From an uncultured Acidobacteriota bacterium (GTDB lineage Bacteria > Acidobacteriota > Vicinamibacteria > Vicinamibacterales > UBA2999): a DNA stretch of 64,000 nucleotides. The stretch covers positions 860,799 through 924,798 of the forward strand of contig CAWFCS010000013.1 in assembly GCA_963814395.1 (NCBI GenBank), written 5' to 3'. Of this stretch, positions 1 through 14,313 are shown in pieces. The position numbers were made by a program, and so were the translations under genes. The notes beneath the pieces were generated by a model that worked only from the letters and a program-made list of their open reading frames with translations, was not told the DNA's origin and ran no database searches. The first letter of the stretch is position 1, and each line of letters begins with the position of its first letter.

Positions 1-32
1 AAACCCCGACGTGCTTTCGGCTTTTCGTTCAC
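1..32 (-). CDS. 5' end of a gene leaving the window (MNEKPKARRG[F/L]...), possible prepilin leader or Tat signal
   Basis: GTG at 32 preceded by GAAGGGAG RBS on the minus strand; only 10 full codons visible. Confidence 0.35.
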   Translation of the reverse strand, partial: MNEKPKARRG

Positions 33-166
33 GGATTGCTCCCTTCGCTCAGCTACTAGCTGGGCAATCCCTGTACCAAACTTTCGCACACTGGCGCGGT
101 GGCGTATGTTGCTGAAAACAGGAGGGCTAGCGGCGCAAAGATGTCCGCAGACAACTGCCAATTCGA

Positions 167-208
167 ATTGTTTTGATTCGCTTGGGACCAAATGCGAATC
201 AAAACAAT
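167..208. repeat. Perfect 15-bp AT-rich inverted repeat
   Basis: ATTGTTTTGATTCGC (167-181) / GCGAATCAAAACAAT (194-208), 12-nt spacer. Confidence 0.85.
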
Positions 209-254
209 GCGCTTTTGACGTCTACGCTCCAGCTGAGTTGCGACGCCAGGTCAG

Positions 255-464
255 CTATTTCGGCGTCGTCGATCGCCCCGGCCGGAAGTAGTCGCAGTCG
301 GTGCAGTTGGTGACGTCGAACTCATAGCCGACGATCGGCCACAACATCGGATGGGCGCAGTACAAGAGCTGGCCGTCCATGATGGTGTGCAGGCCGAGTC
401 CGGCGGGAATGGTGGGCGTGCGCCGGCTGTACCAGCACACGCGATGGCGATCTTCGGGAGTCAC
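255..464 (-). CDS. Small Cys-rich hypothetical protein (69 aa)
   Basis: 3' part of ORF 255..788 from GTG 464: MTPEDRHRVCWY...YCAHP...NCTDCDYF; protein-like composition, divergent from the yggX-like gene. Confidence 0.55.
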   Translation of the reverse strand: MTPEDRHRVCWYSRRTPTIPAGLGLHTIMDGQLLYCAHPMLWPIVGYEFDVTNCTDCDYFRPGRSTTPK

Positions 465-524
465 GGGCGTGAACTCGCATGATACGACGAGCGCGCGCCT
501 CTGGTCGCAGGTACAATCGCGGCC

Positions 525-857
525 ATGAGTGGCGACCATTCCGATCACCCGCACCACCATCACGACGCGCCCGCTGCAGGCGGCGGCCGCATGGTGCAGT
601 GCGTGAAGTTGCAAGAGGAACTGCCCGGCCTGGACACCCCGCCCTGGCCAGGCCCGATCGGCCAACGCATCTTCGAACAGGTGTCGGCCAGGGCCTGGAA
701 GCTGTGGGAAGAACGCCAGAAGATGATCCTCAACGAATACCGCCTGATGCCCTGGCAGAAGGAAGGCCAGGAACTCATCCTGAAGCACATGGAAGAGTTC
801 TTCTTCAGCGAGAGCGCGCCGATGCCGCCGGGCTACGTGCCGCCGCGTTCGAAGTAG
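525..857 (+). CDS. yggX: Fe(II)-trafficking / oxidative damage protection protein YggX family, His-rich N-terminal extension
   Basis: MVQCVKL...GLD.PPWPGPIGQRIFEQVS..AW..W...Q.M.LNEYRL signature. Confidence 0.9.
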   Translation: MSGDHSDHPHHHHDAPAAGGGRMVQCVKLQEELPGLDTPPWPGPIGQRIFEQVSARAWKLWEERQKMILNEYRLMPWQKEGQELILKHMEEFFFSESAPMPPGYVPPRSK

Positions 858-876
858 ATTCCAGCCGGCCTGTGTC

Positions 877-2170
877 TCACGCGCCCGGCGCCTGCACCTC
901 GATCACCGGGTCGATCTGGAAGCGCAGGCGCGCGTGGGCCTCGCGCAAGGCGTTGTGCACCGCGCGGTCGTCGGGCCCTTCGGCAAAGACGAAGCCCAGG
1001 TAGCTCGCCCCTTCCGGCAGGGCCACCAGTCGCTGATCGACCTTGGCCGTGACGACCACGCCGGTCACGAGCGGCACGGCGCGCGCGTCGTCCTCCCCCG
1101 CCACGGCGCGCAGCACGCCTGAGCGCGGGAATCGGCACCATCATCACGCCCACAGCCGCGCCGGCAGGACGCCAGTGCGGCGCCGCCAGGCCGGCCGCCT
1201 GCGCCAGCAAGCACCTCTTCCAGCGGCACGCCGTGGCCGTCGGGGCCATCGAACGCCAGCGCCCGGGCGCACAAGCCCGCCGATCGGCCGCGCCGCCACT
1301 TCGAGCACCACGACCTCGCCCGAGCCGGCACGCGGCACTCCGCATGCACCGGGCCATGCCAGAGCCCGGCGGCGTGCGCGGCTCGCGTCACGGCCGGGAT
1401 GATCGCCAGTGCGTGGGCGCGCGTGCGGGCCGTGGGCGTGAGATAGACCGTCTCTTCGAAGTAGGGGCCAGTGAGCGGTTCCGGCTTGTCGAAGATGGCG
1501 AGCACATGCAGGCGGCCGTGGTCCATCACCCCTTCGAGGGCGAACTCGTCGCCGTCGACGTAGCCCTCGATCTGGATGCGCCTCGGCGGCCTCGTCGCGC
1601 AGCTCGCGCACGTCGGGCGCCGCCAGCAGCGCGCTCACGCGCGCCAGCGCCGCCCGCAGTTCGGCGGCATCGTTGGCGCGCATCACGCCGCGGCTGCCCG
1701 AGAGCACGAGCGGCTTGACCACGCACGGATACGACACGCCGTCGGGCGGCGTCGACCTGTCCGGCGGGCACCGTGAGCGCCCACGGCGCGGGCAGGCCAT
1801 GCGCGCGCTGACAGGCGCGGAAGCGCCGCTTGTCTCGGCTCGCGCGCGCGCCGGCCACCGAGTGCCAGGGCAGGCGCCGCGCCTCGGCCACGAGCGCCGC
1901 CAGTACCACCGGCCGGTCGCCCACCGCCAGCACCCCGTCGAGACGCTGGCCCGCCAGCGCCTGCAGCACCGCGTGCAACGACGCGGCCTCGTCGTGGAAG
2001 CGCACGGCCACGGCGCGGTCGCGCCACGGGTCGTCGAGCCGGTCGCAGCGATCGGTCGCCAGCACGAGCTCCACGCCGAGCCGCGTCGCCGCCTCGTCGA
2101 ACATCCGCGTCTGATAGCCCGTGGTCGTCGCGCACAACAACACGCGCGGCCGCAGCGTGACATCGGTCAT
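877..2170 (-). CDS. ATP-grasp domain protein (L-amino-acid ligase-like), frameshifted
   Basis: Joined fragments: RDKRRFR, YPCVVKPLVLSGSRGVMRAND, IFDKPEPLTGPYFEETVY, GPVHAE, LEVAARPIGG, LPEGASYLGFVFA. Confidence 0.85.
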
Positions 2171-2221
2171 CGTGTGTCCGGGCGCGTGGACTGGGCGCCA
2201 GCCTCCGTGCTCCATCGCCCG

Positions 2222-2254
2222 CCCCTAGTCCCTAGTCCCTAGTCCCTAGTCCCT
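2222..2254. repeat. Heptamer tandem repeat (CCCTAGT)x4
   Basis: cccctagtccctagtccctagtccctagtccctg between the radical SAM and ATP-grasp genes. Confidence 0.9.
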
Positions 2255-2257
2255 GCA

Positions 2258-3635
2258 CTAAAGGAGAGCCACCTGCTCTCCCGTCGGCTCCGCTCAACAG
2301 TACCAGGGCTCGGTGAGGTACGGAATCGACGCGCGCGATGGCAGCACCGGCCGCGGCCCTGGCGCGCCGGCCACATCGGCCGCGGCGCGCGCGCGAATGG
2401 CCTCGAACGTGGCGCGGCGCGGGCCGGCCCTGCGCCACGCCGGCCATCTGCATCACGTCGCGCTGCAGGGCATCGACGCGGGCGTCGGCATGGACCCACG
2501 GGATGGGTCAAGCGTGGCGGGATTGTAGGGGCCGGCCACGGCGCGGATCTCGTCGAGCGCGAGCAGGCCCGAGTCCTGCGTGACGAGCAGGCGCAGCGTC
2601 CACTGCACCGGCGGCCACGTGATCCACGAGCCCCAGTCCGTCGATGTCGTCGAGGAACGCGAGATAGCCGGTCGCCGTCGTCCACGGCGTGAAGGCCACG
2701 AACGTGGGTGAGAGGGCCAGCCCCAGCTCGTGGCAGCGGGCGGCCACGGCTTCGACATCGGCGCGCGTGTGGCCTTTGTCGAGCGCCACCAGCACGTGGT
2801 CGTCGAGCGATTCGACGGCCGAGGTGACAAAGGCGCAGCCGGTGTCGCGCAGCGCGCGGCAGCAGCGCGTCGTGCCGGCGCAGATGCTCCACCTTGATGG
2901 TCACGTCGTAGGTCAGCGCCGGCCACTCGCGGTGCAGCGCCTCGACGAGACGCACGGCATGCGTGGGCCCGTTGAAGAAATCGGGATCGGCAAAGGTGAT
3001 GTGCGTGGCGCCGAGCGCCACCTGCGCGCGCACGTCGGCCAGCACGACCTCCACCGGCACGGCGTGGAAGCGGCCCTGGTAGATGGGCACCACCGGACAA
3101 TGCCGGCACACGTGCTTGCAGCCGCGGGTGGCCTCGACCGCACCCACGACGCTGGCATGGCCGTCGGGCCAGACCAACTGCGCATAGCGGTCGAGCGCCG
3201 GCAGGCCGGCGCGGTCGGGCACCAGCGGCCGACGCCGCGCGGCCGCGGCACCGTCGGCGGCGCGGCGCGAGGCCGTGCACGCGCACAGGCCAGCGCCACG
3301 AGCTCCTGCTCGCACTCGGGCCCGAACACCGCGGTGGCGCCGGCCTCGCGCAGGCGCGCGTCGTTGAGCGGTCCGTAGAGCCCGTAGGCGCAGATCGGCA
3401 CGTCGGGCAGGCGGCGCCGCAACTCGGCGATCACCGGCAGCGCCAGACGCGTGGCGGTGTGCATCGGCAGCGACACGGCCACGAGCGTGACGCCCTGCAG
3501 CGCGTCAGCCGGCAGCCGCTCGACCGCGAGGTCGTGCACGCGCACGTCGAGCCCGGCGCGGCGCAGCCACGCCGCCGGCAACGCCAGCCCGACCGGCTGG
3601 CGGCCGAGGTCGTAGACCGAGAGCAGGAGGACCAG
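2258..3635 (-). CDS. CUAEP-tail radical SAM selenoprotein with N-terminal B12-binding-like domain, frameshifted
   Basis: N-term [30 protein letters not shown]; CxxxCxx[36 protein letters not shown]; tail [13 protein letters not shown](2296-2294)[14 protein letters not shown](2260-2258). Confidence 0.88.
2263..2281 (-). promoter_or_regulatory. Bacterial SECIS hairpin
   Basis: 12 nt after the in-frame UGA: GGAGAGC-AGGUG-GCUCUCC, perfect 7-bp stem with G-containing apical loop. Confidence 0.8.
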
Positions 3636-5142
<1,507 letters not shown>

Positions 5143-5179
5143 AGGCAGGGCGTATTGTATCCTCGCGACAGCCCGCCCC

Positions 5180-5873
5180 ATGCCGCTCGACGAGTACCGC
5201 AAGAAACGCGACTTCACGAAGAGCCCCGAGCCGGCGGGCGATGCCAAGGCCGCCGCGAGCGGCGCAGAACGCTTCTTCTGCGTGCAGAAGCACCTGGCGA
5301 GCCACCTGCACTACGACCTGCGGCTCGAACACGACGGCGTGCTGCTGTCGTGGGCCGTGCCGAAGGGCCCGTCGCTCGACTGGAACGACAAGCGCCTGGC
5401 CATGCAGGTGGAGGACCACCCCGTCGAGTACGGGTCGTTCGAGGGCGTGATTCCCGAAGGCTACGGCGCCGGCGTGGTGATGCTGTGGGACGTGGGCACG
5501 TGGACCGTCGCAGTCGCCCGACATCGACGCGGCGCTGCGCAAGGGCGACCTCAAGTTCCGCCTCGATGGCTACAAGCTGAAGGGCTCCTGGGCGCTGGTG
5601 CGCACGCGCGGCTACGGCGACAGCAGCAAGCCGAGCTGGCTGCTCATCAAGCACAAGGACGAGTGGTCGGGACCACTCGACATCACCACCTTCGCGCCGC
5701 TCAGCGTGAAGACGCCAGGCGCCGACTTGGCGGATATCCTGGCGGGCGACACGCCCGGCCTGTGGCACCGCAACCCGCCGGCCAAGACCGGCGACACCGG
5801 CAAGCTGTTCCAGCGCATCATCGCCACGGCGCTCGAACTGCGCGCCGCCCGGCCGAAGGCCAAGCGACGCTGA
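5180..5873 (+). CDS. Stand-alone LigD 3'-phosphoesterase domain protein, frameshifted near 5515
   Basis: [69 protein letters not shown]. Confidence 0.9.
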
Positions 5874-5889
5874 ACGCCGCGCGCGGCAG

Positions 5890-6474
5890 TTACCTCGCCC
5901 GCAAGGGGCGGCGCGTGATGACCACGATCTCGGCCCCGCCCATCGCCGTCTTGCCGACGGTCAGGTCGATGGCCTGAAAGCCGGCCTCGACCACCTCGCG
6001 CAGCTCCTTCTCGAGGGTCGAGGTCTTCGACGTGGCCACGAGCTTGTACTCGTATTGCACTGCCAGCGCCTGGTCGGAACTCTTCTGCACGATCGCCACC
6101 GTTTCCCGGCCGCCGAACATGCTCTCGAACACCGTCTGCCCCACGGCGTGATAGCCGGCCTCGCCCGCTTCCTGCAGTTCCTTCTGCAGGGTCGACGTGC
6201 GATTGGTGGCCAGCAGCCGGTAGCTGTAGGTGTTCTTGTCATCTTGCGCCTTCTCGAGCAGCACCACTGCCTCGCTGCCGCCGAAGCCGGTCTCACCGCC
6301 CATCACCGCCACGAAGCGATAGCCGAGCGCCCCGGCGTCCTTCAGCTCCTTCTCCATGGTCGAGGTCTTGTTGGTCGCGAGAATCTTGTAGTTGGCCGTC
6401 TGGGCCGCGGCCGGCAGGGCCGCAATCAACGCCAGCAGAGCAACGGCGACACTGACACGAAACATTCGGTTCAC
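5890..6474 (-). CDS. Secreted hypothetical protein with three internal repeats
   Basis: Signal peptide ending AAA-Q; 3x Y[KR].[LV]AT.[KR]TST[ML].KEL.....G[YF]. Confidence 0.8.
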
Positions 6475-6535
6475 GGCAACCTCCGGGGGAGTGCGGACAT
6501 CATCGGTTCGTGCGGAATGGTAGCGCACGCGGGGT

Positions 6536-8014
6536 TCACTTCCGGTAGTCGAGCGGCGGCTTGCGCGTGGCCAGCCGCGTCGTGTACGTGAAATTGGCGC
6601 CGCGTACGCGGGTGAACTCCTCGCGCGCCTTCACGACGTGCGCCGGGTCCGACAGCAGGTCGATGGTCGTGAGAGCCATGGTCTTGGCCGCAACCATCAT
6701 GCCCTTCACGCCAATCTGCGTGCCGCCGGCCGCCACCGCCTGCCAGCTGTGCGCCGAAGTGCCGGGCACCCAGGTGGCCGCCGACATCTGCACCGTGGGC
6801 ACGCGCCAGCTCACGTCGCCGGTGTCGGTGGACGCGCCGCCCACGCCGTGTTCCATCGGCATCACCTGCGAGGCCAAGTCGATGGGCGGCAGGCGTCACG
6901 TCGAACGACGTGCGGATGCCCTCGGCGAACGGTCCGCTCGTCGGGCGTGTAGGTGTAGCCGCCCACGGCCTTCAGGTGTTTCTCCATCACCGAAGCCAGG
7001 TAGCTGTTCGGCAGCACGTTCCACACCGCGCCCATGATCTCCATCTCGACCGTCGTGTCGGTGCCGAGCGCCGCGCCCTTGGCCGCGTTCTCGATCCGCT
7101 GCCACATGGCGTCGAGCACGCGCATGTCGTTGTGGCGCGCGTAATAGTAGACCTCGGCGAAGTCGGGCACGACGTTGGGCGCACTGCCGCCGCGCGTGAT
7201 CACGTAGTGGATGCGGGTGTCGGAGGGCACGTGCTCGCGCATCATGTTGACCATCGCGTCCATCGCCTCGACGCCGTCGAGGGCCGAGCGGCCGCGCTCA
7301 GGGGCCACGGCGGCATGCGACGGCCACGCCGTGGAAGCGGAACTTGGCGTTGATGTTGGCGAGCGAGCTGTCGGCGCTCACCGCATTCCGGTCGCCGGGA
7401 TGCCACGACACCACCGCATCGACGCCGTCGAACAGTCCGGCGCGCAGCATGTAGACCTTGCCGGCGCCGCCTTCCTCGGCGGGCGTGCCGAACACCTTGA
7501 TGGTGCCCGCGCGTCCGCTCGCCGCCAGCCAGTCCTTCACGGCCGCGGCCGCGGCCACCGAGGCCGTGCCGAACAGATGATGGCCGCAGCCATGCCCGGC
7601 GCCGTTCTCGACCAGCGCCTTGCGGCCGGGCGTGGCCGCCTGCGACAGGCCGGGGAGCGCGTCGAACTCGGCCAGGATGCCAATGACCGGTGCGCCACTG
7701 CCGTAGGTGGCCACGAACGACGTCGGCATGTCGGCGACGCCAGCGGTCACCGCGAAGCCGGCGGAGGCGAGTTGCCGCTGCAGCAGCGCGCTGCTCCGCT
7801 CCTCCTGATAGCCGACTTCGGCGAAGTTCCAGATGGCGAGCGCCACCTCGCCGAAGTGCGCGCGCTTGGCCTCGAGGCCGGCGATCACGGCGGCCGTGGG
7901 CGGCGCGGCCGCGGGCGCCGACTGCGCGTGGATGACCGCCGCCATGGCGAGTGCCGCCGCCACAACCGCACGCCCCAGCACTGCGCCACTCGCCCGTCGC
8001 GTCATCGCTCGCAT
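6536..8014 (-). CDS. Secreted M20D amidohydrolase (AbgB-like), frameshifted
   Basis: AEFDALPG, GHGCGHHL, GTPAEEGG, SWHP, RSALD, APNVVPD, STDTGDVSW; N-terminal signal peptide. Confidence 0.9.
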
Positions 8015-8037
8015 GTCCGTCTCCTTCGCTGGGCCGA

Positions 8038-9004
8038 TCACAGCACGCGCGTGCTGAGCACGCTCCACACCGCGTGCGACAAGCGCCGGCGATCGTGGCG
8101 GGCGATCTCGCGCGTCCAGAGCGGCGCTTCCACGAGCGTCGTGTGGGCGGGCAGGGTGCCGAGCGCAAGGGGCTGTTTGTTCTCGCGGGCGTAGTTGGCG
8201 AGCAGCGCCGAGGGCAGGCGCGCGGTGTTGAAGACCACCAGGTCGACCGGGCGGTCGATGGTGCGCTCGAGCCACGCCACGGCGTCACCGGCGGTGAAGT
8301 CCTTCATGCCCAGGCCCTCGGTGAGCAGGTTGCTCACGAACACGATCGGCCCGGGCATGGCATGCAGCGCGTCGCGCACGCCGTCCACGAGCAGCGTGGG
8401 CATCAAGCTCGTGAAGAAGCTGCCGGGCCCGATGATCACCGCGTCGAAGGTGCGCACGGCGTCGGCCACGGCCGGGATGGATGTCGGCGGACGGCTCGAG
8501 CCAGATGCGCTCGATGGCATGCCCGGCCGTTTGCCACGCGTCGACCTCGACTTCGCCGCGGCTCATGTGGCCATCGGCGTGTTCGGCGCACAGCGAGGCG
8601 CGGGTCACGCTGACCGGCCAGACCCGGCCCTGGCAGCCGAGCAGCGCGCGCAGGCCGTCGACCGCCGCCAGGAAGTCGCCGCTGTACTGCTCCATCATCG
8701 ACAGCAGCAGGTTGCCGCCGGTGTGGCCGCCGAGCTTCTTGTGCTCGAAGAGCGTAGGCAGACGCGACAGCAGCACGCGGCGCGCCTCGCCTTCGTTGCG
8801 CGACAGCGCCAGCGCGCAGCGCAGCACGTCGCCCGGCGGCAGCACGCCCAGTTCGTCGCGCAGCTGACCCGAACTGCCGCCGCTGTCGAAGGTGGTGACG
8901 ATGGCGTTGAGCCGCAGCCAGGGATTGCGTTTCAGGCCGCCGAGCAGGCTCGGCAGGCCGGTGCCGCCGCCGAAGCAGCCGATGTTGAGCTGACGCAGTC
9001 GCAT
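8038..9004 (-). CDS. yvcK: YvcK/CofD-like (UPF0052) gluconeogenesis factor, frameshifted near 8480
   Basis: FGGGTGL, DSGGSSGQLR..LGVLPPGD, GHTGGNL, IGPGSFFTSLMP, RHD. Confidence 0.9.
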
Positions 9005-9031
9005 GGCGCACCATTCTAGTAGACTGGCCCT

Positions 9032-9724
9032 ATGGCGGCTCCGTCGGCACTCGTGGCCTCACTCGTGCTCGCGGATCTGCAGGACATCTTCGGCGCGCGC
9101 CTGCACGCCTTCGTCACCTATGCACCGTCGGTGTCGCCGCGCCCCAGCCTGGCGCTCGTGCAGTCGCTGGCGCTCGCCGACCTGACCTCGTGCGCGGCCC
9201 GGGTCAAGCGGTGGCGCCAGGCGGGCGCCGCCACGCCAGTAGTGCTGACGCGACAGGAATTCGCACGCTCGCTCGACGTGTTCCCCGTGGAATTCGGCGA
9301 GATCATCGCCAACCACGAGACCCACTTCGGCGACGACCCCTTTGCCGGACTCGTCGTGGCCACCGGCGACCTGCGGCGCGCCTGCGAGGGTCAGGTGCGC
9401 AGCCTGTTGCTGCACGTGCGCGAAGACTACATGGAAGCCGCCGGGGCGCCGCGCGACGTGGTGCGGGTGGTGGTGGAATCGGCCGCGGAGTTCCGCGCCC
9501 TCTTGAGCCTGCTGGCGCGGCTCGACGCGCAGCGGCTCGAAGGGCAGGCGCTGGCGGCGTGGGCGGCCGGGCGCCTGCTGCTGGATGCCGCGGTCGTCTC
9601 CGACGTGCTGCACATCGCCCACGACGTCGATGGCAGCGGCGTCGACGCCGGCCGGCTCTTCCCCGCCTATCTGGCCGCCATCGAGCAGCTCGCGCGGCAC
9701 ATCGACGAGTGGCCCGACCGGTGA
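9032..9724 (+). CDS. Nucleotidyltransferase-fold-like hypothetical protein associated with LemA/TPM genes
   Basis: EFARSLDVFPVEF..I......GDDPF, LRRACE.QVRS.LL..RE motif; first gene of TPM-LemA run. Confidence 0.65.
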   Translation: MAAPSALVASLVLADLQDIFGARLHAFVTYAPSVSPRPSLALVQSLALADLTSCAARVKRWRQAGAATPVVLTRQEFARSLDVFPVEFGEIIANHETHFGDDPFAGLVVATGDLRRACEGQVRSLLLHVREDYMEAAGAPRDVVRVVVESAAEFRALLSLLARLDAQRLEGQALAAWAAGRLLLDAAVVSDVLHIAHDVDGSGVDAGRLFPAYLAAIEQLARHIDEWPDR

Positions 9725-10529
9725 CCCGGCCACGCACCGCCGGACGCGCCGCGGCGAGCCTCGCGATCGGGCTGCTGTGGCTCGCCAGCACGGCCCCGCT
9801 CACCGCCCAGGACCCGCCGCCGGCCCTCACCGCGCCCGTCAACGACTTCGCCCAGGTGATCGATCCGGCGTCGGCGCAGGCCCTCGACCGCCTGATCCGC
9901 GCGCTGCGCGCCGCCAGCGGCGACGTGGTGGTCGTGGCCACGGTGAAGACCTTCCAGCCCTGGCCCGACGTGCGCACCTACGCCACGAAGATGTTCGAGA
10001 ACGGCGGCCGCGGGCATCGGCGAGAAGGGCAAGGACAACGGCCTGCTCGTGCTGCTCGCGACTCGACGACCGGCAGGTCTGGATGGAAGTGGGCTACGAC
10101 CTCGAAGGGGTGGTCACCGACGGCTTCGCCGGCGAGACCAGCCGCGAGGTGATGACGCCCTACTTCCGGCAGGGCGAATACGGCCAGGGCCTGCTGGCCG
10201 GCACGTCGCGGGTCATCGAACGCATCGCCGCCGACCGGAACGTCACCGTCGAGGGCATCGAGGTGCGCGACGCGCCGAGCAGCACCCGCGACCCCGTATC
10301 GCCGAACCGCATGCTGCTGCTCTTCGTCGTGTTCTTCATCGTGCTGCCCTTGCTCAACCGCTCCGGCCGCGGCCGGAAGCGCTCGTGGCGCGGCGGCGTT
10401 GGTCCGTGGGGCGGAGGCTACTATGGAGGCTCCTGGGGCGGCGGCGGCTCCTGGGGCGGATCGTCGGGCGGCTTCGGCGGATTCGGCGGCGGCCGCAGTG
10501 GCGGCGGCGGCGGTGGCGCGTCGTGGTAG
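9721..10529 (+). CDS. TPM domain protein (YgcG family), frameshifted
   Basis: VNDFAQVI, GIGEKGKDNGLL, EVGYDLEGVVTD, TM helix, Gly-rich tail ending GGGRSGGGGGGASW. Confidence 0.9.
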
Positions 10530-10571
10530 ACGCGGCGGCCGGTTGGTTGCGCGTTCGGTGGAGGAGGAGTC

Positions 10572-11144
10572 ATGCGACAGGTAGTGATGGCGGCACTGGT
10601 GCTGGTGACGGCAACCGCGTCGAGCGGATGTTCGTACAACACGTTCGTCAGCCAGGAAGAAGCCGTGAAGGCGCAGTGGGCGCAGGTGGAGAACCAGCTG
10701 AAGCGCCGGAGCGACCTGATTCCCAACCTGGTCGAGACGACCAAGGGCTTCGCTCAGCAGGAACGCGACGTGTTCCAGGCCATCGCCGACTCGCGCGCCA
10801 AGCTGGCCGGCGCCCGCAATCCGCAGGAGACGATGCAGGCGGCCAACGAGCAGTCGAGTGCGCTGTCGCGCCTGCTCGTGGTGGTCGAGGCCTATCCCGA
10901 CTTGAAGTCGAGCGCCATCTTCGCCCGGCTGACCGACGAACTGGCCGGCACCGAGAACCGCATCGCCACCGAGCGGATGCGCTACAACGAGCGCGTGCAG
11001 GAATACAACACGTCGCGACGGAAGTTCCCCGCCAACGTCACCAACGCCATCTTCCGCTTCCAGGACTACCCGCTCTTCGAGGCTCCGCCCGAGGCGAAAG
11101 AAGTGCCGAAGGTGGACTTTTCGCGGCCGAAAACCGGACCGTAA
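10572..11144 (+). CDS. lemA: LemA family protein
   Basis: WAQVENQLKRRSDLIPNLV, EAYPDLKS, ELAGTENRI..ER.RYN. Confidence 0.95.
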   Translation: MRQVVMAALVLVTATASSGCSYNTFVSQEEAVKAQWAQVENQLKRRSDLIPNLVETTKGFAQQERDVFQAIADSRAKLAGARNPQETMQAANEQSSALSRLLVVVEAYPDLKSSAIFARLTDELAGTENRIATERMRYNERVQEYNTSRRKFPANVTNAIFRFQDYPLFEAPPEAKEVPKVDFSRPKTGP

Positions 11145-11214
11145 CCCGCTTCCAACCCTACGGCACGCCCCACCATCAAATGGGGTAACGGAGCCGAAGC
11201 GCCTGGACCGCGGT

Positions 11215-11781
11215 GTGACCTCAACTTTTCACTCCCGGCCCGAGTCGGAGGCCGACGACGTCGCCCGCGCGGTTGCGGGTGACGCGGCGGCCTTCGAGCG
11301 CCTCTACCGAACCCACGTGCCTCGCATCCTCGCCCTCGCCCGACGCATGGCCGGCGCCGACAGCGCCGACGAACTGGTCCAGGACATCTTCGTCCGGGTG
11401 TGGCAGAAGCTCGGCGGCTTTCGCGGCGAGTCGTCACTGGCCACCTGGGTGCACCGCCTGGCGGTGAACGTGATCATCGAGCGCTTCCGCACGTTGGGCA
11501 CGGCGCGCGACCGCTTCCTGGCCGATGGCGACGACGCCCTCACCCGGATGCCGGCCCCCACCGAAGCCGTGCGCGGCTGGGACGCGGGCATGGATCTGCA
11601 CGGCGCCGTCAACCGGTTGCCGCCCGGCGCCCGCGCGGTCTTCGTGCTGCACGACGTGGAAGGCTACAAACACGAGGAAATCGGCACGCTGCTCGGGGTG
11701 TCGGTCGGCACCTCGAAATCCCAACTCCACCGCGCCCGCATGTCGCTGCGTGGCCATCTCTCACGGGAGGCCCGCGCATGA
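11215..11781 (+). CDS. ECF RNA polymerase sigma factor
   Basis: GDAAAFERLY, ELVQDIF, FRGESSLATW, FVLHDVEGYKHEEIG..GTSKSQLHRAR. Confidence 0.93.
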   Translation: MTSTFHSRPESEADDVARAVAGDAAAFERLYRTHVPRILALARRMAGADSADELVQDIFVRVWQKLGGFRGESSLATWVHRLAVNVIIERFRTLGTARDRFLADGDDALTRMPAPTEAVRGWDAGMDLHGAVNRLPPGARAVFVLHDVEGYKHEEIGTLLGVSVGTSKSQLHRARMSLRGHLSREARA

Positions 11782-12506
11782 GCCTCGCTCCGCATTGCAC
11801 CGACGCGCTCTCGGCCTACCTCGACGGCGACCTCGACGCCTCGGCGGCCCGAGCCGTGGCCGATCACCTCGCGACCTGCGCGGACTGCCGCGCCGTCGTG
11901 GCCGACCTCGAACGGCTGCGACACGACGTCACACGCTGGGCCGCCGACACCGCCGTGCCGGCGGCCGATCTCTGGCCCGGCATCGCCGCGCGCCTCTCGG
12001 CACCGGAGGCCACGCTGGCGGGGACCACCGGGGCGCCATCCCGTGCCCCGGTGGTCCAGCTCGCCTGGTATCGCCGCCGGGTGTCCCTGGGTGTGCCCGA
12101 ACTGGCCCTCGCCGCCTCGGTCATCGCCGCCTTGAGCGGCGCGTTGCTCTATCAGCGCGGATCGGCACCGGTGCCCGTGCCGGGCCCGACGCCGGTGCTG
12201 GCGCAGGTCGAGCCGTTCGATGCGCCGGATGCCAGTGTGACCACGGTGAGCTTCGCCGACGCGCAATACGACGCGGCCGTGGGCGACCTCGAGCGCGTGC
12301 TGCAGGATCAGCGCCACGAGCTCAATCCCCGCACCGTGCTCGTGCTCGAGCGCAACCTGCGGATCATCGACGAGGCCGTGCAGGAAGCGCGCGCGGCCCT
12401 GGCCAGCGACCCGGCCAATCCGCTGCTGAACGCCCAGCTGGCCGACGTGCGCCAGCGCAAGCTGCAACTGCTGCGCAAGGCCGCGCTCATCACCGAAGGA
12501 GACTGA
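11778..12506 (+). CDS. Anti-sigma factor with zf-HC2 (ZAS) domain
   Basis: LSAYLDGDL...HLATCADC, single TM helix; ATGA overlap with the sigma gene. Confidence 0.9.
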   Translation: MSLAPHCTDALSAYLDGDLDASAARAVADHLATCADCRAVVADLERLRHDVTRWAADTAVPAADLWPGIAARLSAPEATLAGTTGAPSRAPVVQLAWYRRRVSLGVPELALAASVIAALSGALLYQRGSAPVPVPGPTPVLAQVEPFDAPDASVTTVSFADAQYDAAVGDLERVLQDQRHELNPRTVLVLERNLRIIDEAVQEARAALASDPANPLLNAQLADVRQRKLQLLRKAALITEGD

Positions 12507-12511
12507 CGCCC

Positions 12512-13759
12512 ATGCCCGCCCGCCCCTTGCTGCTCGCCGCCCTGTTCGCGGTGTCTGCCCCCATCCCCGCTGTCGCGCGCGCCGCCGACGCGCCGCCCGC
12601 GCCCCAGGCCAAGCCGGCGGCTGCCCCTCAACCCGCGCAACCGCCCGTGCAGGCGCGGCCGGGAGGACCGGAATCGCAGACGCCGCAATCGGATCAGACG
12701 GTGGATGTGGCCAAGGGCACCCGGCTCGTGCTGTCGAATCAAGCCGGTGAGGTCAGCGTGCGCGCGTGGGATCGTGATGCCGTGCGGGTGCAGGCCAACC
12801 ACAGCTCGCGCGAGCGTATCGACGTGCAGAACGCTGACAACACCGTGCGGGTGCGGGCACGGGCCACCTCGGGGTCGCGCGGACCCGCCGGCCTCATCGA
12901 CTTCGTGATCACCGTGCCCCGCTGGATGCCCGTGAACGTGTCGGGCACCTACCTGGCGGCCGACATCCAGGGCACGAGCGCCGAAGTCAACGTGGAGACC
13001 GTGGGCGGCGACATCACGCTCAAGGGCGGCTCGGGGGCGGTGACGCTGCGCTCGATCGAGGGCGAGATCCGCGTCGAGAACTCTTCGGGCAAGGTGCAGG
13101 CCACGACCGTGAACGACTCAATCACGATTGCCGGCGTGTCGGGCGACGTGGTCGCCGAAACGGTCAACGGCGACGTGGTGGTGTCGAACTCGAAGGCGGC
13201 GAGCCTGGAGGTGTCGACCGTGAACGGCGACGTGCGCTTCGAAGGCCCCACCGCGGACAAGGGCACCTACCGGGTCACCACCCACAACGGCGACATTCGC
13301 GTGAGTCTTGGCGCACAGGCCAACGCCACCGTGTTCGTGCGCACCTTCGGCGGCGACTTCTCGAGCGACTTCCCAGTGACGTTGCCCGACGGCATGGGCA
13401 GCCGCGACGGCAACAAGCGCTTCAACTTCACGCTCGGCGCCGGCTCGGCACGCGTCGAGCTGCAGTCGTTCCAGGGCGACATCCACGTGGCCAAGGGCGC
13501 GCTGCGGAATCGCGAGCAGGAGCGGGAAGATGCCCGCGGCCGCAAGCGCGGCGTGCTGAACTTCGAACAGCTGGGGCGCGAGGTGCAACGCGAGGTCGCG
13601 CAGGAACTCCGCCAGGAGTTCGGTCCCGAGTGGCCGGGTGAGCTCGCGCGTCTCCGCGAGTGGGCCGGAGCCCTCATCGCACCGGAGGCGCCGCCCGCAC
13701 CGCCCGCGCCGCCAGCGCCACTGGGGCCACTGGCGCCCCCTGCGCCCCGGCCGCGATAA
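12512..13759 (+). CDS. DUF4097 beta-strand-repeat (putative adhesin) secreted protein
   Basis: Signal peptide; repeated TVGGDI/SIEGEI/TVNGDV/THNGDI units; downstream of the ECF pair. Confidence 0.85.
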   Translation: MPARPLLLAALFAVSAPIPAVARAADAPPAPQAKPAAAPQPAQPPVQARPGGPESQTPQSDQTVDVAKGTRLVLSNQAGEVSVRAWDRDAVRVQANHSSRERIDVQNADNTVRVRARATSGSRGPAGLIDFVITVPRWMPVNVSGTYLAADIQGTSAEVNVETVGGDITLKGGSGAVTLRSIEGEIRVENSSGKVQATTVNDSITIAGVSGDVVAETVNGDVVVSNSKAASLEVSTVNGDVRFEGPTADKGTYRVTTHNGDIRVSLGAQANATVFVRTFGGDFSSDFPVTLPDGMGSRDGNKRFNFTLGAGSARVELQSFQGDIHVAKGALRNREQEREDARGRKRGVLNFEQLGREVQREVAQELRQEFGPEWPGELARLREWAGALIAPEAPPAPPAPPAPLGPLAPPAPRPR

Positions 13760-13770
13760 TCCCCCGGCGC

Positions 13771-14313
13771 TCAGCCGACGGTGCGCTCGGCCCGCAGCAC
13801 GGCCGCATCGCCCGGCACGGCCCGAATCACGAAGCCAGCCCTCCGCACCACGGCGCGCATGGCGTCGTTGTCGGCCAGCATCTCACCGTAGAGATGGCGC
13901 ACGCCCAGCTCCCGGGCACCGTCGACGAGCGCGTGCATCATCGCCGTGCCCAGGCCGAGCCCGTGCCAGCGGTCCACGACGAGCAGCGCCACTTCTGCTG
14001 ACCCTTCCGGCTCGGTGCGCGTCAGACGGCCGAGTGCCACGACGGCGGGCACGCCGTCGGCCGAGGTGTGCTCGGCCACGAGGGCGAGGCCCACGGCCGG
14101 GTCCACGCGGCAGGTCAGCGCGAGCCGCGTATGCGTGATTCGCTGCTCGAGCGTGCTCAGATGAAAGTAGCGCTGATACACCGACCGCGGCGACACACCG
14201 GCATGAAAGGTGACCATCAGCGGCTCGTCGGCGGGACGAATCGGGCGAATCGTGACGACCGTGTCGTCGCGCAGCCGCAGCGTGACGCCGCGGGTCGAGT
14301 CGTCCGGAGCCAT
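13771..14313 (-). CDS. GNAT N-acetyltransferase (Pat C-terminal-like)
   Basis: IRPIRPADE, SPRSVYQRYF, AEVALLVVDRWHGLGLGT, N.AM...RRAGF. Confidence 0.88.
   Translation of the reverse strand: MAPDDSTRGVTLRLRDDTVVTIRPIRPADEPLMVTFHAGVSPRSVYQRYFHLSTLEQRITHTRLALTCRVDPAVGLALVAEHTSADGVPAVVALGRLTRTEPEGSAEVALLVVDRWHGLGLGTAMMHALVDGARELGVRHLYGEMLADNDAMRAVVRRAGFVIRAVPGDAAVLRAERTVG

Follow-up and report, generated by a model that had tools for sequence, protein, structure and literature searches.

The radical SAM gene and its in-frame UGA codon

The window analyzed here is a stretch of 64,000 nucleotides from an uncultured Acidobacteriota bacterium of the Vicinamibacterales (lineage UBA2999; assembly GCA_963814395.1, contig CAWFCS010000013.1, positions 860,799 to 924,798 of the forward strand). 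Close to its beginning it carries, on the minus strand, a gene for a radical S-adenosylmethionine (SAM) enzyme whose reading frame is predicted to continue through a UGA codon into a tail with vicinal cysteine (Cys) and selenocysteine (Sec) residues. Such a hidden Sec had been proposed for the WYC-U-AEP tail in an earlier note made from the letters of the window, and the comparison of homologous loci described below makes it very likely that the UGA is read as Sec. The Sec tail itself is already catalogued, as selenoprotein family NF040546. The accessible part of the report that names this family gives it one sentence, as an uncharacterized CU-motif selenoprotein (10.1101/2022.07.06.499078), which agrees with what the earlier note had said about its reaction. 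The features of the gene are as follows.

2258..3635, minus strand: CUAEP-tail radical SAM (seleno)protein gene, NF040546, with CTG start and TAG stop, recognized in profile pieces; B12-binding-like N-terminal domain, radical SAM barrel and C-terminal tail
3097..3120, minus strand: CxxxCxxC [4Fe-4S] motif, here CKHVCRHC, with its three Cys invariant in 92 aligned homologues
2294..2296, minus strand: in-frame UGA, predicted Sec codon, second residue of the Cys-Sec pair
2262..2282, minus strand: predicted bacterial selenocysteine insertion sequence (SECIS) hairpin, seven Watson-Crick pairs and one G-U, loop AGGUG
3648-3642, 3638-3636 and 3635-3633, minus strand: Shine-Dalgarno-like GGAGAGG, stop codon of the upstream transporter gene and presumed CTG start, respectively

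The tail WYC-UGA-AEP is read from 2305 to 2285 of the minus strand, with the Cys codon at 2299-2297 and the TGA at 2296-2294, and the frame closes with TAG at 2260-2258. The perfect stem GGAGAGC/GCTCTCC with loop AGGTG lies at 2281-2263, beginning 12 nt 3' of the UGA exactly as the earlier note had described it, and the same DNA encodes the peptide GEQVAL. The CAGGU apex may resemble the SECIS of E. coli fdhF, a likeness that the earlier note had proposed. By its stability alone the hairpin does not stand out from 200 shuffles (z = 0.14), so stability was dropped as stand-alone evidence, and an Rfam search of window positions 1-8000 returned no match. Across the genome, 63 of 126,545 TGA triplets fit a loose apex-plus-stem rule, and 6 of 126,549 fit a strict-register rule. 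A lone hairpin is ordinary for DNA of 70% GC, and the case for Sec rests on comparison.

Among the GTDB loci, which are the best 80 of at least 570 stretches, mostly from Acidobacteriota and nine of them from the same genus, 48 have a CU tail, 29 a CC tail and one a UC tail, and two end before the tail, so that the UGA aligns with TGC or TGT in 29 of the 78 tail-bearing loci. When the stem is scored as present at 4 bp or more in a fixed register, it is found in 48/48 CU forms and 0/29 CC forms. In 40 Chloroflexota loci, 18/19 CU forms and 4/21 CC forms have it; the four stem-bearing CC loci are close kin and may keep a relic hairpin. Several Chloroflexota Cys forms (loci L128-L131, L134 and L143) have long tails that end in further CC pairs, and the SECIS-like stem retained in L128-L131 suggests a recent change from Sec to Cys. 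Compensatory, both-sided changes occur at several stem pairs among the CU loci; at stem position 6, for instance, C-G is found in 33 of the 48, G-C in seven, A-U in three and G-U in one, with four unpaired. Within the genus, a match to NF040546 at E ≤ 1e-30 was obtained in 14 of 18 genomes, and in each of the 12 whose tail was recovered, TGT-TGA is followed by the hairpin in the identical register.

The residues EQ(V/L/G)AL that come 3' of AEP are constant in acidobacterial Sec forms and variable in Cys forms, suggesting that the RNA constrains the peptide. At both tail positions only Cys or Sec occurs, and E446 and P447 are invariant in 92 sequences, so the conservation of AEP after the codon, on which the earlier note had made its reading hinge, holds. 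The alternation of Cys and Sec that it had described for this family is likewise borne out by the 48 CU and 29 CC forms and by a tree built without the tail, which contains 11 Sec/Cys label changes, at least six of them forced by strong branches. The tree, made by a quick method, comprised 104 of 110 loci (four without the start motif and two ending early were omitted), and 92 of the 104 were used for the fold. One Anaerolineae locus (L110, 8345-8350) reads WY-UGA-C-AEP, with Sec first rather than second. Contigs of relatives from four public sequencing runs have no other letter at 2294-2296; among the public runs no reads from this organism were found, no RNA run carrying it was listed, and none of the runs contains more than 15% of its words. 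A TGT before the UGA was considered as a general recoding signal and rejected: it occurs in 48/48 loci of the acidobacterial set but in 2/13 of Chloroflexota, and the preference is therefore lineage-specific.

The Sec machinery that the earlier note had named was found in part. The genome contains selA (519 bits), selB (309 bits) and tRNA-Sec (66.4 bits), all over cut-off, and ARAGORN reports tRNA-SeC(tca), whereas selD was found neither by profile nor by tblastn with the SelD of the genus, the best match reading as ThiL, in an assembly that is 76% complete. The gene is present in 16 of 18 genus mates, and in 4 of 6 loci of relatives the SECIS region of selD contains GCAGG. Among 251 Chloroflexota genomes with a completeness of 85% or more, which as kin are not independent, selA is present in 22/22 with the TGA form and in 38/42 of the others with the radical SAM gene, a weak test because 188/251 carry selA overall. 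Elsewhere in the genome of this organism, on the minus strand of contig G000:C26 (offset about 87,390), a CPF-UGA sequence is accompanied by a hairpin with a CAGUU apex; this gene, whose product we take to be AhpD-like, is likely a second selenoprotein of the genome.

The window copy of the gene is broken, and this bears on whether the UGA is simply a true stop or the copy a pseudogene, in which case this organism would have no selenoprotein here. Six frame pieces match NF040546 in profile order (131.7, 211.9, 98.6, 13.6, 14.1 and 36.4 bits), and their sum of about 506 bits is not a valid single score. The membership that the earlier note had proposed, in a radical SAM family with CUAEP or CCAEP tails, is instead carried by the intact same-genus orthologue P0002, with 571.4 bits against a cut-off of 500, which is exceeded in 11 of 19 genus genomes. 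Relative to the closest intact orthologue (L041), the window copy has 91% nucleotide identity, ten frameshifting 1-nt insertions and no deletion, and the adjacent ligase gene has 11 indels. The ten insertions are probably assembly errors rather than decay: all are of the +1 kind, contigs of relatives of about 96% identity lack them at the ten sites, and the 121 substitutions, 90 of them in third codon positions, leave 83 codons changed synonymously and 27 non-synonymously and introduce no stop. Over window positions 1-14000 the ligase gene, the transporter gene and the genes at 5072-5977 and 8038-9004 are frameshifted as well, with selA, selB and yggX intact, a pattern consistent with local errors of the assembly consensus. 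A true stop could also draw on the selD gap, on the lack of reads from the organism and on the database, where 115 of 120 homologues end at WYC; those truncations, however, arise because gene callers stop at UGA, and selA is present in all 22 Chloroflexota genomes with the TGA form. On balance, a genuine stop or a pseudogene is very improbable.

The gene agrees with NF040546 in matching it over the whole length, in having the CxxxCxxC motif and the C(U/C)AEP tail and in the alternation of Cys with Sec, and it shows no difference in kind, apart from the CTG start of this genus and the frameshifts of this assembly copy. The CTG is placed 6 nt after GGAGAGG, directly behind the transporter stop. 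It is found at this position in 9/9 intact genes of the genus, and other Vicinamibacteria have GTG or ATG there or one codon earlier; a start behind or overlapping the transporter stop may limit or couple translation. The consequence of the UGA for annotation is seen in Thermomicrobium roseum, whose RefSeq protein ends at WFC while UGA-AEP follows in the DNA. Records cut at the UGA are without the probable substrate-binding residue, and cloning from them would give a truncated enzyme. A 7-mer is repeated in 4.6 perfect copies (2223-2254) in the gap that separates the radical SAM stop from the ligase gene; several relatives have similar G-rich short repeats after the stop, and such repeats draw many unrelated contigs.

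The ligase, YggX and NfuA as companions

The genes that accompany the radical SAM gene in the window are listed below.

877..2170 (ends approximate), minus strand: L-amino-acid-ligase-type ATP-grasp gene, frameshifted by 11 indels in the assembly
525..857, plus strand: YggX-family Fe(II)-trafficking/oxidative damage protection protein, convergent with the ligase gene
3636..5142, minus strand: POT/PTR2 peptide transporter, directly upstream of the radical SAM gene; the orthologue matches PF00854 and TIGR00924
255-464, minus strand: unannotated 69-aa open reading frame with four conserved Cys (C, C, CxxC), convergent on yggX

The ligase is very probably a functional partner of the radical SAM enzyme, as judged from gene neighbourhood and co-occurrence. 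Its intact orthologue exceeds the cut-offs of PF13535, PF18603 and PF18130 (ATP-grasp_4, LAL_C2 and ATPgrasp_N), and its best solved relative is the L-amino acid ligase 3VOT (E 5.6e-33). It thus shares three ligase domains with the L-amino acid ligases BL00235/3VOT, BacD and RhiM/RhiC of rhizocticin, while scoring far under the BacD and DdaF cut-offs and having, in contrast to them, no dedicated exporter or resistance gene conserved beside it. When the five of 80 GTDB loci with less than 600 nt of downstream sequence are dropped, the ligase adjoins the radical SAM gene co-directionally in 72/75 and lies 1.35 kb off in one more; the remaining two genomes have a ligase of 44% identity elsewhere. 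In the 251 Chloroflexota genomes both genes occur together in 62, the radical SAM gene alone in two, the ligase alone in 16 and neither in 171. A recheck of five ligase-only genomes revealed a radical SAM fragment at a contig end in one and no family-level match in four.

The YggX orthologue scores 113 bits on PF04362 and passes the cut-off of NF003817. The gene accompanies 71/80 GTDB loci and lies within 1.5 kb in 26/30 Chloroflexota loci (one of them partial), and 43 of 46 Chloroflexota genomes with a strong YggX match carry the radical SAM gene, one more having a contig-end fragment of it beside YggX. From the 21 radical SAM-bearing Chloroflexota genomes without a strong YggX match 10 were fetched, and in 9 of these an NfuA-like gene stands beside the pair; no NfuA match was found in the other 110 loci. 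The NfuA-like proteins score below the NfuA cut-offs, and the NifU domain is over cut-off in the two scanned with Pfam. A DUF169 gene is present in 7 of the same 10 genomes. From this distribution, YggX and NfuA are apparently interchangeable companions of the radical SAM-ligase pair. NfuA is described, in the accessible part of one report, as a stress-resistant Fe-S carrier (PMC8593673), and the swap suggests that YggX serves the cluster of the enzyme. Weaker YggX-family matches in two genomes (G240:C1:1262942-1263166 and G123:C103:15512-15754) contain one in-frame TGA each, which may end the frame or encode Sec. In one Chloroflexota lineage (L161, L165 and L167) the pair of ligase and radical SAM gene stands immediately upstream of lipB and in the same direction, with lipA and aceE coming after lipB in L161 and L165.

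Other neighbours were rejected as members of the core. The POT transporter is found in 60/80 loci, reading in the same direction in 26 of them and the other way in 34, and none of the Chloroflexota loci (0/30) has it within 1.5 kb. A molybdopterin oxidoreductase (46/80) and genes that we presume to encode a LigD phosphoesterase-like protein (62/80) and a YvcK/CofD-family protein (46/80) reflect synteny within the Vicinamibacteria. The 69-aa Cys-containing frame recurs in 32/120 loci, all of the acidobacterial set; it gave no Pfam match, and its Atlas neighbours are hypothetical Acidobacteriota proteins. A search of the literature, in which few subscription journals were covered, revealed no description of a module of radical SAM enzyme, ligase and YggX or NfuA. 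Such a module is absent from the account of NF040546 in the accessible part of 10.1101/2022.07.06.499078, and the accessible part of a 2026 review of prokaryotic selenoproteins (PMC13188914) contains neither CUAEP nor NF040546.

Kinship with ArsL and the proposed chemistry of the tail

After NF040546, the second-best family of the orthologue P0002 is that of ArsL (NF040542, 246.8 bits), and the next family reaches 37 bits. According to the accessible parts of two reports, ArsL cleaves the C-gamma-S bond of SAM, joins the ACP (3-amino-3-carboxypropyl) group to As(III) and is, among CxxxCxxC radical SAM enzymes, the sole one known to release that group, and its RCCLKC tail binds arsenic and is required to form the C-As bond but dispensable for SAM cleavage (10.1101/2024.02.01.577332; 10.64898/2026.04.29.721666). 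The literature is split on the need for the third Cys of this tail: as far as the accessible texts go, single Cys-to-Ala changes abolish ArsL activity (10.64898/2026.04.29.721666), and a review reports an 'MCCA' mutant, a notation left undefined there, as most active on methylarsenate (PMC13598754). The enzyme studied here has the same domain order as ArsL, about 30% identity over 86% of the length and a vicinal pair near the C-terminus, which is Cys-Cys in ArsL. Among 96 positions conserved in the family at 95% or more, both ArsL sequences have the same residue at 54, the Cys-Cys pair of the tail, which the aligner set across a gap, among them. Differences from ArsL are also clear, since the enzyme belongs to a separate clade, has about 45 extra residues before the tail and Sec in place of the second Cys, and is accompanied by YggX or NfuA instead of ArsM, aquaporin and GNAT.

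The five ArsL plasmid clusters that were opened, out of 36 non-CUAEP matches and representing two cluster types, all lie in an arsenic context and contain an ATP-grasp gene (5/5) and an ArsR-family gene (5/5). They come from Priestia (twice), Bacillus cereus, Pantoea and Klebsiella (L120, L121, L171, L172 and L173), and in them the ATP-grasp gene stands beside a small CMD-like or hypothetical gene, together with genes for a GTP-binding protein and an aquaporin. This arrangement suggests that these hosts make arsinothricin or a precursor of it in peptide form. A peptide form in ArsL-plasmid hosts was not found in the literature searched: the accessible part of PMC8552651 has no occurrence of ATP-grasp, and PMC13149037 has arsinothricin in its references only.

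With the precedent of ArsL, the capture of a metalloid by the tail, which the earlier note had suggested, gains plausibility by analogy, and we propose, with a probability of about 0.4 for the scheme as a whole, that the Cys-Sec tail serves an ArsL-like transfer of ACP to a thiophilic trivalent metalloid, followed by ligation into a dipeptide. The ACP chemistry taken by itself, again argued from ArsL, has slightly better than even odds. SelB would bind the hairpin and insert Sec, and YggX, or NfuA in other lineages, would supply or repair the [4Fe-4S] cluster. The two-ligand Cys-Sec tail would then fold back and present the acceptor, of which an (organo)arsenic or antimony compound is the most plausible. 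SAM would be split at its C-gamma-S bond, giving methylthioadenosine and an aminocarboxypropyl-metalloid amino acid, and the ligase would cap this product as a dipeptide for storage, detoxification or export. Two tail ligands, against the three of ArsL, would suit organo-As(III) or another two-coordinate acceptor. An ACP product is an alpha-amino acid and therefore fits the substrate type of this ligase; L-amino acid ligases cap unusual amino acids as dipeptides, according to the accessible part of PMC13579937. In Chloroflexota, extra tail cysteines occur in 10/21 Cys forms and in 1/19 Sec forms.

The fold of the enzyme raises another possibility, that it is a cobalamin-dependent (class B) radical SAM enzyme methylating a metal or metalloid held by the tail, in loose parallel to the CU-bearing mercury methylase HgcA. 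The only solved structure matched by sequence is the diol dehydratase AprD4 (PDB 6FD2), which is also the top fold match (TM about 0.7), with 19-20% identity and 29 bits against a cut-off of 500; it differs in having no Cys-Sec tail and in acting on a sugar. Searches of the PDB by sequence or fold yielded no ArsL structure, and an Atlas look-up gave nothing beyond 'radical SAM'. The fold neighbours include TsrM and OxsB, and the N-terminal piece reaches 27.4 bits on PF02310 (cut-off 32.1), although P0002 has no match to that domain. His59 of the PMHT motif is invariant here and absent from ArsL. AprD4, the best fold match, is not known to bind cobalamin. The Gly-Gly typical of cobalamin pockets is replaced by Tyr/Phe-Gly both here and in ArsL, and a methylated product would give the ligase no amino-acid handle. 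The accessible text of 10.1101/2022.07.06.499078 discusses the CU motif as a heavy-metal signature, but ArsL, with the same N-terminal domain, is active as purified, with cobalamin unmentioned (10.1101/2024.02.01.577332). Taken together, these points make methylation of this kind improbable.

The tail itself could be read in a different way, as a redox swinging arm whose Cys-Sec pair shuttles electrons to the cluster or releases the product, with the radical chemistry directed at a common organic compound, for example an amino acid or the dipeptide made by the ligase. Animal thioredoxin reductase has a C-terminal Cys-Sec of this sort. In the AlphaFold model of the orthologue (pLDDT 92.9) residues 431-440 stand at 81, the PYLTEPW stretch is moderately ordered, and the last tail residues are flexible (pLDDT 65 and 51), as an arm might be. 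The tail moreover offers only two chalcogen ligands, there are no arsenic genes in 110 loci, and the linked YggX and NfuA point to conditions of oxidative stress, as far as the accessible part of one report on NfuA goes (PMC8593673). On the other hand, the nearest characterized relative uses its tail for substrate binding and not for electron supply, no reductase or thioredoxin partner was identified among the recurring neighbours, and the added tail Cys of the Cys forms fit avidity for metal better than a two-electron pair. A redox arm is thus unlikely.

The ACP group could also be transferred, by the same reaction, to sulfur or selenium borne on the tail as a persulfide, a selenide or a sulfinate-type group, to give a homocysteine- or selenohomocysteine-type product and then, through the ligase, a small peptide bearing a thiol or selenol. 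In ArsL, dithionite intercepts the ACP radical and homocysteine sulfinic acid results (10.1101/2024.02.01.577332), and the link with NfuA recalls the sulfur-inserting lipoyl synthase, in the accessible part of PMC8593673. The gene pair lies directly upstream of lipB in one Chloroflexota lineage, and a wide vertical distribution without ars genes would suit such a product. This alternative is nevertheless distinctly unlikely, as a SelD homologue was found in 0/110 loci, Cys forms work without Sec, 4 of the 42 non-TGA Chloroflexota radical SAM genomes have no selA match, and the lip linkage is limited to a single lineage.

Standing of the scheme and its meaning

Several observations weigh against the transfer of ACP to a metalloid. 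The enzyme falls short of membership in the ArsL family, at 246.8 bits against the cut-off of 450, and differs from ArsL at 42 of the 96 conserved positions, among them PMHT for PLFD and FFNGPTH for (F/W)F(N/S)(A/T)(K/R)YH, with differing motifs behind the N-terminal domain's second strand and behind the FADPD strand, so that its acceptor pocket is probably different. The third Cys of RCCLKC is missing in 48/48 CU forms of the acidobacterial set. Homologues of ArsR, ArsM, aquaporin, GNAT, CobW and CMD, sought by tblastn with proteins of the Pantoea and Priestia clusters, were found in 0/110 loci, 30 of which were represented with 1.5-kb flanks only, and the arsR- and arsM-like matches of this genome are about 92 kb away. 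The ligases of the ArsL clusters have 20-26% identity to the present one (two compared), and because of this low identity the pairing of ArsL with a ligase is parallel, not orthologous. The window copy of the radical SAM gene is frameshifted, and selD was not found in the 76%-complete assembly. Finally, the gene is single-copy, syntenic and chromosomal in a quarter of the Chloroflexota sampled, an inheritance that resembles housekeeping or stress metabolism more than it does an antibiotic cluster. The lack of ars genes and this housekeeping-like spread keep the redox arm, the sulfur or selenium acceptor and the cobalamin-dependent methylation alive beside the preferred transfer of ACP to a tail-held metalloid.

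Only tentatively would we extend that preferred reading to a pathway, widespread and vertically inherited in Acidobacteriota and Chloroflexota, by which a selenoenzyme would transfer ACP in a non-canonical way to a metalloid or chalcogen held by Cys-Sec, a dedicated ligase would convert the product to an organometalloid dipeptide not yet described, and YggX would act as an iron-sulfur maturation factor equivalent to NfuA with this enzyme as its client. As a sister family of ArsL, NF040546 could show whether chemistry that releases ACP is widespread. Given the partnership with the ligase, an unknown small molecule is to be expected in roughly one quarter of the sampled Chloroflexota and in the majority of genomes of this genus, and the interchange of YggX and NfuA offers a direct handle on what YggX does. 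The ligase, the YggX or NfuA partner and the kinship with ArsL make an uncharacterized, widespread pathway directly testable.

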